Below, in pieces: positions 9,290 to 9,680 of a DNA stretch of 64,000 nt; the stretch's first letter is position 1; every line of letters begins with the position of its first letter. Location of the stretch: assembly GCF_003334815.1 (NCBI RefSeq), contig NZ_QOWO01000016.1; one strand, given 5' to 3'. A model generated the notes under the pieces. The model saw nothing but the letters and a program-made list of their open reading frames with translations. It was not told where the DNA came from and ran no database searches. The stretch is from Escherichia coli (GTDB taxonomy: Bacteria > Pseudomonadota > Gammaproteobacteria > Enterobacterales > Enterobacteriaceae). The translations under genes and the position numbers were made by a program.

Positions 9290-9376
9290 TGGTGCGAGGG
9301 GGGGGACTTGAACCCCCACGTCCGTAAGGACACTAACACCTGAAGCTAGCGCGTCTACCAATTCCGCCACCTTCGC
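9290..9376 (-). tRNA. tRNA-Leu (anticodon CAG)
   Basis: Reverse complement reads GCGAAGGTGGCGGAATTGGTAGACGCGCTAGCTTCAGGTGTTAGTGTCCTTACGGACGTGGGGGTTCAAGTCCCCCCCCTCGCACCA: a long-variable-arm cloverleaf with CAG anticodon and encoded CCA. Confidence 0.9.
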
Positions 9377-9480
9377 ATACCATCAATTCTTAAAAAGAAT
9401 TGCTACCACGGAGGCGCATTCTAGTGGTTTTCAGCTTTTCGTCAATAGTTAATTATCGCCGGAGGTGTAATTGCTGGAAA

Positions 9481-9680
9481 AATGTCCATCAGGAAACTAA
9501 CGTGCAGGTTTTGTAGGTCGGATAAGGCGTTCACGCCGCATCCGACACGGTATTTGGGTGCAGATGCCAGATGCGACGCGGGCGCGTCTTATCTGGCCTA
9601 CGAAGGGCTAACGTGCAGGTTTTGTAGGTTGTATAAGGCGAGCACGCCGCATCCGACAAGGCTTGCGGCGGGATACTTAA
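9481..9680. repeat. Two REP (repetitive extragenic palindrome) elements
   Basis: Two near-identical copies of CTAACGTGCAGGTTTTGTAGGT...GATAAGGCG...CGCCGCATCCGACA. Confidence 0.55.

Follow-up and report, generated by a model that had tools for sequence, protein, structure and literature searches.

E. coli K-12 MG1655 (NC_000913.3) carries three tandem tRNA-Leu(CAG) genes, leuQ-leuP-leuV, between yjjZ and rsmC. A first-pass annotation of the E. coli DNA analyzed here, a stretch of 64,000 nucleotides that we refer to as the window, described one clear tRNA-Leu at the corresponding place, set it against a three-gene leu cluster in K-12, and suggested that the window represents a copy-number variant or a different strain. 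How did this locus come to have one gene, and is the single-copy state the older or the younger one?

A single tRNA-Leu(CAG) gene occupies the leuQPV locus

ARAGORN identified one tRNA gene in the 64-kb window, an 87-nt tRNA-Leu with the anticodon CAG at position 35. Its coordinates are exactly those given in the first-pass annotation, which had not given a strand; the gene is on the minus strand. The gene and its neighbors are as follows.

8086 to 8874, minus strand: fhuF (open reading frame list; annotation of strain GF124.3)
9015 to 9251, plus strand: yjjZ, encoding a DUF1435 protein (transferred by offset from the near-identical GF124.3 annotation)
9290 to 9376, minus strand: tRNA-Leu(CAG), the sole copy at the leuQPV locus (ARAGORN; Rfam RF00005; identity to K-12)
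9677 to 10708, minus strand: rsmC, encoding the 16S rRNA m2G1207 methyltransferase (open reading frame list; GF124.3 and K-12 annotation)

The Rfam tRNA model RF00005 matched the minus strand from 9293 to 9376 with a score of 48.5 bits (gathering score, 29). The tRNA-Leu(CAG) has a cloverleaf with the long variable arm of a class II tRNA, and its 3′ CCA is encoded, with the gene ending in ...TCGCACCA. All 87 of its 87 nucleotides are identical to those of both leuQ and leuV of K-12. We also looked for additional tRNAs in the interval from 9377 to 9680, where, according to the first-pass annotation, any such find would refute its reading. Neither ARAGORN nor a permissive Rfam E-value scan of positions 8000 to 11000 gave any further tRNA-like match in that interval, and we therefore ruled out hidden or degenerate copies there.

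The position of the gene is that of leuQPV: it lies between yjjZ and rsmC and is read from the rsmC side. rsmC is its upstream neighbor on the same strand, and yjjZ, which is convergent with the tRNA gene, lies at the promoter-distal boundary of the array. The same single-copy arrangement is present in GF124.3, a Swiss chicken-meat isolate that differs from the window at only 3 of 7,401 bases over window positions 5086 to 12486.

The window lacks exactly two gene-plus-spacer units of the K-12 array

We compared the window in a three-way alignment with K-12 and XH993, a strain that has two copies. The K-12 cluster given in the first-pass annotation is correct, and the reference locus is not single-copy; NC_000913.3 has three genes for tRNA-Leu1 (CAG).

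leuQ: b4370
leuP: b4369
leuV: b4368, at 4606079 to 4606165 in NC_000913.3

The window is shorter than the K-12 array by exactly 236 bp, which corresponds to two gene-plus-spacer units, one of 121 bp (leuV and its spacer) and one of 115 bp (leuP and its spacer). The two spacers of the array are unique sequences of 28 nt and 34 nt. The alignment is otherwise collinear, running from yjjZ into the tRNA gene and from the tRNA gene into the promoter region, with both flanks intact. Both suggestions of the first-pass annotation thus hold: the locus is a copy-number variant, with a clean loss of two units, and the strain is not K-12, its flanks being ~98% identical to those of K-12. Where leuQPV has three tandem genes in one transcription unit, the window has one gene only. 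A substitution, G40A (plus strand), serves as a marker of the middle gene of the array; each of the six three-copy strains that we examined has it in its middle copy (K-12, 10153, ET734, O55:H7 DEC5E, JJ1887, and O103:H2 CEC12044). The gene in the window does not have this leuP marker.

We conclude that the locus is very probably the leuQPV operon, with the three-gene tandem array collapsed to one gene by recombination between identical copies. The product is the standard outcome for direct repeats, since whole units are lost, the end points fall inside identical 87-bp repeats that lie 236 bp from each other, and no change is seen in the flanks. The 236 bp would have been lost by recombination between the identical 87-bp leuQ (promoter-proximal) and leuV (distal) genes, through either RecA-mediated unequal sister-strand exchange or RecA-independent replication slippage, and the collapse could have been a single event or have passed through a two-copy state. 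Identity over 87 bp suffices for RecA-mediated exchange in E. coli, and repeats this short and this close together also delete efficiently without RecA. We infer the recombination mechanism from its product alone. Because the recombining copies are identical, the deletion junction would lie somewhere inside 9290 to 9376 and cannot be placed more finely.

Single-copy loci are scattered among flank haplotypes

We constructed a neighbor-joining tree of 17 loci, using 2,340 bp from fhuF-yjjZ, the promoter region, and rsmC as the flanking sequence. Single-copy loci fell on at least six separate flank haplotypes and were interleaved with two- and three-copy loci. The single-copy haplotypes are those of the window and GF124.3, of GPT21-004_1 and ETEC1746, and of WB61, ST648, EcPF16, PapRG-06-5, and EDL933. 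GPT21-004_1, which has one copy, does not differ at any of the 2,340 bp from strain 10153, which has three. Two distinct spacers and the leuP marker are common to the three-copy arrays of K-12, JJ1887, an O55:H7 strain, and an O103:H2 strain, strains that are distant from one another, which implies that the three-copy array is old.

These data bear on the opposite direction of change, in which a single copy is ancestral and the three-copy array arose by tandem duplication. Tandem duplication of tRNA genes is a known route to more copies (PMC7661048, PMC10954465). However, ~91% of genomes, from distant lineages, have the same array, down to its two spacers and its leuP marker, which argues for one old origin, and the single-copy loci are scattered over the haplotypes described above, one of them matching a three-copy strain over the full 2,340 bp. 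We consider an ancestral single copy extremely improbable. From the scattered haplotypes and the identity of GPT21-004_1 to 10153, we infer instead that the single-copy state is derived, recent, and recurrent, the ancestral state being read from the distribution within E. coli. Between-strain recombination that moves a single-copy allele onto new backgrounds could inflate the number of independent events.

Two-copy strains provide candidate intermediates. In the three that we sampled, including XH993, the P-Q spacer is kept and the leuP marker is gone, so that both copies are marker-free. This state matches the expected product of an exchange between leuV and leuP. The loci examined thus display what deletion between repeats should leave behind: loss of whole units, end points within the repeats, untouched flanks, recurrence, and intermediates.

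Two further observations were made on the sequences of the copies themselves. The outer leu copies are invariant in 17 of 17 loci, and in two strains leuP has one more substitution beyond G40A (10153, locus L011, 1425 to 1511; ET734, locus L012, 1426 to 1512). From these comparisons, the middle gene, leuP, appears to evolve faster than its neighbors. Separately, the only leu copy of ETEC1746 (locus L005, 1305 to 1390) and the middle copy of JJ1887 (locus L015, 1765 to 1850) have 7 G's instead of 8 in a homopolymer, giving a gene of 86 nt; this shortens the run of C's extending across the T stem and the 3′ acceptor strand. The missing G reflects either a sequencing error in the homopolymer or a mutation that inactivates the gene. 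Should the change be genuine in ETEC1746, no intact copy is left at the locus of that strain.

About 8% of complete E. coli genomes have a single copy

We surveyed 5,426 complete E. coli genomes using diagnostic BLAST queries. The query for the single-copy locus was 167 nt long and consisted of the tRNA gene with a 40-nt flank on each side; a match required at least 80% coverage, and multi-copy genomes stop at 77%. With this query, approximately 425 of the 5,426 genomes (7.8%) were single-copy, a count that, like the others in this survey, rests on BLAST coverage thresholds rather than on genome-by-genome inspection. The leuV-leuP spacer junction was present in 4,985 genomes and the leuP-leuQ spacer junction in 4,980 to 4,999, with 427 genomes lacking any match to the latter. 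The figure of 425 agrees with these 427. The counts fit a distribution in which ~91% of genomes have three copies, <1% have two, and ~8% have one. A longer query of 287 nt gave 509 single-copy genomes. We discarded this count, because 509 and 4,985 together exceed 5,426, and replaced it with that of the 167-nt query; the excess apparently arose from overlapping pieces that were joined in some multi-copy genomes.

The survey also bears on the quality of the assembly. An assembly artefact would require that the source has three copies and that the assembler collapsed the 115- to 121-bp tandem units, an error to which short-read assemblies are classically prone at near-identical tandem repeats. 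However, the repeat is just 87 bp long, the 28-nt and 34-nt spacers are unique, and ordinary 150-bp reads span the repeat. Moreover, the single-copy structure is found in the 425 complete-level genomes, including that of EDL933, and in the near-identical GF124.3. An artefact is, in our judgment, barely credible, and we retain a genuine collapse of the array as the explanation for the window.

O157:H7 strains may contribute substantially to the single-copy class. O157:H7 EDL933, a complete-level assembly, has a single-copy locus, and all five O157:H7 records among the matches seen are single-copy. When single-copy genomes were sampled at even spacing, about half were O157:H7 or similar cattle or beef strains with genomes of ~5.45 to 5.5 Mb, a rough impression rather than a count. 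Hence, a single clone, O157:H7, may account for much of the 7.8%.

The single-copy allele is already known in the sense that it is annotated in hundreds of public genomes, and the tRNA, the operon, the REP elements, and the type of event are textbook material. The literature on leuQ/leuP/leuV, leuQPV, and O157 tRNA copy number, of which our coverage was partial, consisted of operon-processing papers and general studies of tRNA copy number, and loss of leuP or leuV was not discussed in it.

The promoter hexamers of the operon are retained

A consensus scan and alignment to K-12 placed a promoter-like site upstream of the tRNA gene.

9418 to 9445, minus strand: leu tRNA operon promoter (10 of 12 consensus matches; K-12 alignment)

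It consists of a −35 hexamer, TTGACG (9445 to 9440), a 16-nt spacer, and a −10 hexamer, TAGAAT (9423 to 9418). A GC-rich stretch, GCGCCTCC, lies 3′ of the −10 hexamer and is the same in K-12. In the alignment, the hexamers and the spacer are base-for-base the same as the region upstream of K-12 leuQ. The site probably corresponds to the functional leuV/leuQPV promoter of the K-12 operon. Approximately 20 nt upstream of the −35 hexamer, at 9465 and 9467, the window has two substitutions relative to K-12 and XH993 (ATCGCCGGAGG versus ATCGACAGAGG). The two positions presumably fall in the area where upstream activating sites of the leu promoter were described.

We looked for an intrinsic terminator downstream of the tRNA gene in the window and rejected one, since no hairpin was found. 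The K-12 leuQPV operon is made as a single transcript that is processed by RNase P and has a Rho-dependent end (PMC2190699), and the absence of a terminator hairpin in the window agrees with such an end. With one gene there would be no polycistronic precursor, so the RNase P cleavage that separates the copies in K-12 would not be needed. Since the surviving gene retains the operon promoter and the downstream context, we expect its transcription and processing to follow those of the operon, but as a monocistronic unit.

Three REP elements separate the tRNA promoter from rsmC

The first-pass annotation reported two REP elements between 9481 and 9680. REP elements are indeed present, and there are three of them; the two counted earlier correspond to the copies of a 54-nt direct repeat.

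9497 to 9661, no strand: BIME between the 3′ end of rsmC and the leu promoter, containing the 54-nt direct repeat
9517 to 9546, minus strand: REP palindrome 1 (inverted repeat I3; core motif at 9533 to 9546, minus strand; alignment)
9566 to 9597, plus strand: REP palindrome 2 (inverted repeat I2; core motif at 9566 to 9579, plus strand)
9628 to 9657, minus strand: REP palindrome 3 (arm of inverted repeat I1; core motif at 9644 to 9657, minus strand)

The copies of the direct repeat (9497 to 9550 and 9608 to 9661) are 91% identical. The orientations of the palindromes are minus, plus, and minus, the middle one being inverted relative to the outer two, and palindrome 3 is 20 nt from the rsmC stop codon. 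Palindrome 1 is missing in K-12 MG1655, where the alignment has a 33-nt gap, and is present in XH993 and others. The window contains 12 occurrences of the REP core motif, compared to 0.21 expected by chance, and three of these, with one mismatch each, are in the block between the tRNA gene and rsmC. The elements are therefore a REP/BIME block, being imperfect palindromes that contain the core motif and are extragenic, clustered, and alternating in orientation. When the 3′ tail of the rsmC transcript was folded computationally, the adjacent inverted REPs were predicted to pair as one long hairpin (−63.8 kcal/mol; z = −3.4).

The REP-derived Rfam family naRNA4 (RF02564) matched positions 9516 to 9598 with 70.3 bits on the plus strand (gathering score, 59.5) and 44.7 bits on the minus strand. 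Because both strands score, the model is reading the palindromic REP pair and not a specific RNA gene. We rejected the pair as a gene for a nucleoid-associated RNA (naRNA4), given also that the family model is itself a REP pair.

Among the sampled strains (loci L001 to L017), the spacer between the tRNA gene and rsmC ranges from 189 to 378 bp. It contains one REP in EDL933 and JJ1887; two in K-12, ST648, and PapRG-06-5; three in the window, XH993, and 10153; and four in 20AR0192. Over the 17 loci, the number of REP units is independent of the tRNA copy number. A second BIME cluster, with seven REP cores in alternating orientation, occupies 59236 to 59551 in the yjjV-yjjW interval of the window; K-12 contains a similar, internally repeated block at 4614255 to 4614668.

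A prophage is inserted in prfC

A 41.9-kb insertion at 12487 to 54368, in the 5′ end of prfC, is missing from K-12 and GF124.3. It is a mosaic lambdoid prophage, with the following genes among its features.

12717 to 13940: integrase
26796 to 27548: Q antiterminator
31327 to 33060: large terminase

Phage vB_EcoM-689R6 matches 70% of the left 25 kb of the prophage at 97% identity, and the first 15 kb of the prophage are 96% identical to Stx2c-converting phages. No open reading frame of at least 120 amino acids was found between Q and 28556, so the place downstream of Q where stxA usually lies holds no gene of that size. Of the 5,426 complete E. coli genomes, 701 contain the attL junction. At 12422, the native start of prfC has been left stranded, and its reading frame stops after 24 codons (12422 to 12496). 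The right end of the prophage supplies a substitute N terminus for release factor 3 from 54349 (prfC, 54349 to 55935), which is one residue shorter, and prfC thereby stays whole. We rejected the nearby prophage as the cause of the leu deletion, since GF124.3 is single-copy and does not have it.

Consequences for gene dosage and the case for selection

CUG is the codon used most frequently in E. coli, and tRNA-Leu(CAG), which reads it, is the most heavily used leucine tRNA. A search with the tRNA sequence found two matching places in GF124.3 and U90, the closest genomes, compared to four in K-12 derivatives. The second place in GF124.3 and U90 is presumably leuT. With two genes in the strain, leuT included, against four in K-12, the gene dosage of tRNA-Leu(CAG) is halved.

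Loss on this scale might be adaptive, with a lower dosage of tRNA-Leu(CAG) being selected at low growth rates; this would explain both the recurrence of the loss, which is seen on several backgrounds, and its fixation in O157:H7. Experimental deletions of redundant tRNA genes in E. coli tend to carry a growth cost in rich media and are often beneficial in poor media (PMC9981150). In addition, the 10 tRNA transcription units found to be essential in MG1655(DE3) do not include leuQPV (PMC11480407), and on the basis of that table we take the operon to be dispensable. However, recurrence is expected equally if an 87-bp tandem repeat mutates at a high rate, much of the single-copy class may be a single clone as noted above, and the retention of three copies in ~91% of genomes argues that the array is usually maintained and is under purifying selection in most lineages. 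We therefore regard adaptive loss as unlikely. The stronger proposal, that the repeated collapse of leuQPV reflects selection and not neutral decay and serves as a quick tuning of translational capacity to slow-growth niches that duplication can reverse, seems to us more doubtful still; if selection were responsible, the locus would be a natural contingency dial for tRNA supply.

Whatever its cause, the collapse of leuQPV is of little importance taken alone and would not surprise a specialist. It provides a clean natural example of within-species polymorphism in tRNA gene copy number (three, two, or one), made repeatedly at a short tandem repeat, and offers a ready natural experiment on the cost and benefit of tRNA redundancy. 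It also calls for caution in annotation and in codon-adaptation models wherever the tRNA gene numbers of K-12 are taken to apply to every E. coli strain. Since the single-copy state is present in O157:H7, it is a possible strain marker.

Comparison with known systems

The REP block resembles enterobacterial REP/BIME elements in all of its main properties, consisting of imperfect palindromes of ~30 nt with a GCC(G/T)GATGCG(A/G)CG core that are extragenic, located at the 3′ end of a gene, and alternating in orientation. The only difference is in the number of units at the tRNA-rsmC spacer, which varies between strains from one to four.

With K-12 leuQPV, the window has in common the chromosomal position, the strand, and the promoter hexamers with their spacer. 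The downstream sequence toward yjjZ is also conserved, with a few substitutions and no terminator hairpin. The two loci differ in that the window has one gene instead of three, the variant leuP copy and both intergenic spacers being gone.

The collapsed arrangement is shared with O157:H7 EDL933 and the other single-copy complete genomes in RefSeq, in which yjjZ, one tRNA-Leu(CAG), and rsmC follow one another and PGAP annotates a single tRNA-Leu. The flanking haplotype of EDL933 is a different one, with 98.6% identity to the window over the 287-nt query (the tRNA gene and 100 nt on each side), and EDL933 has one REP in a 189-bp spacer, whereas the window has three REPs in a 300-bp spacer. The collapses in the window and in EDL933 were probably independent deletion events.
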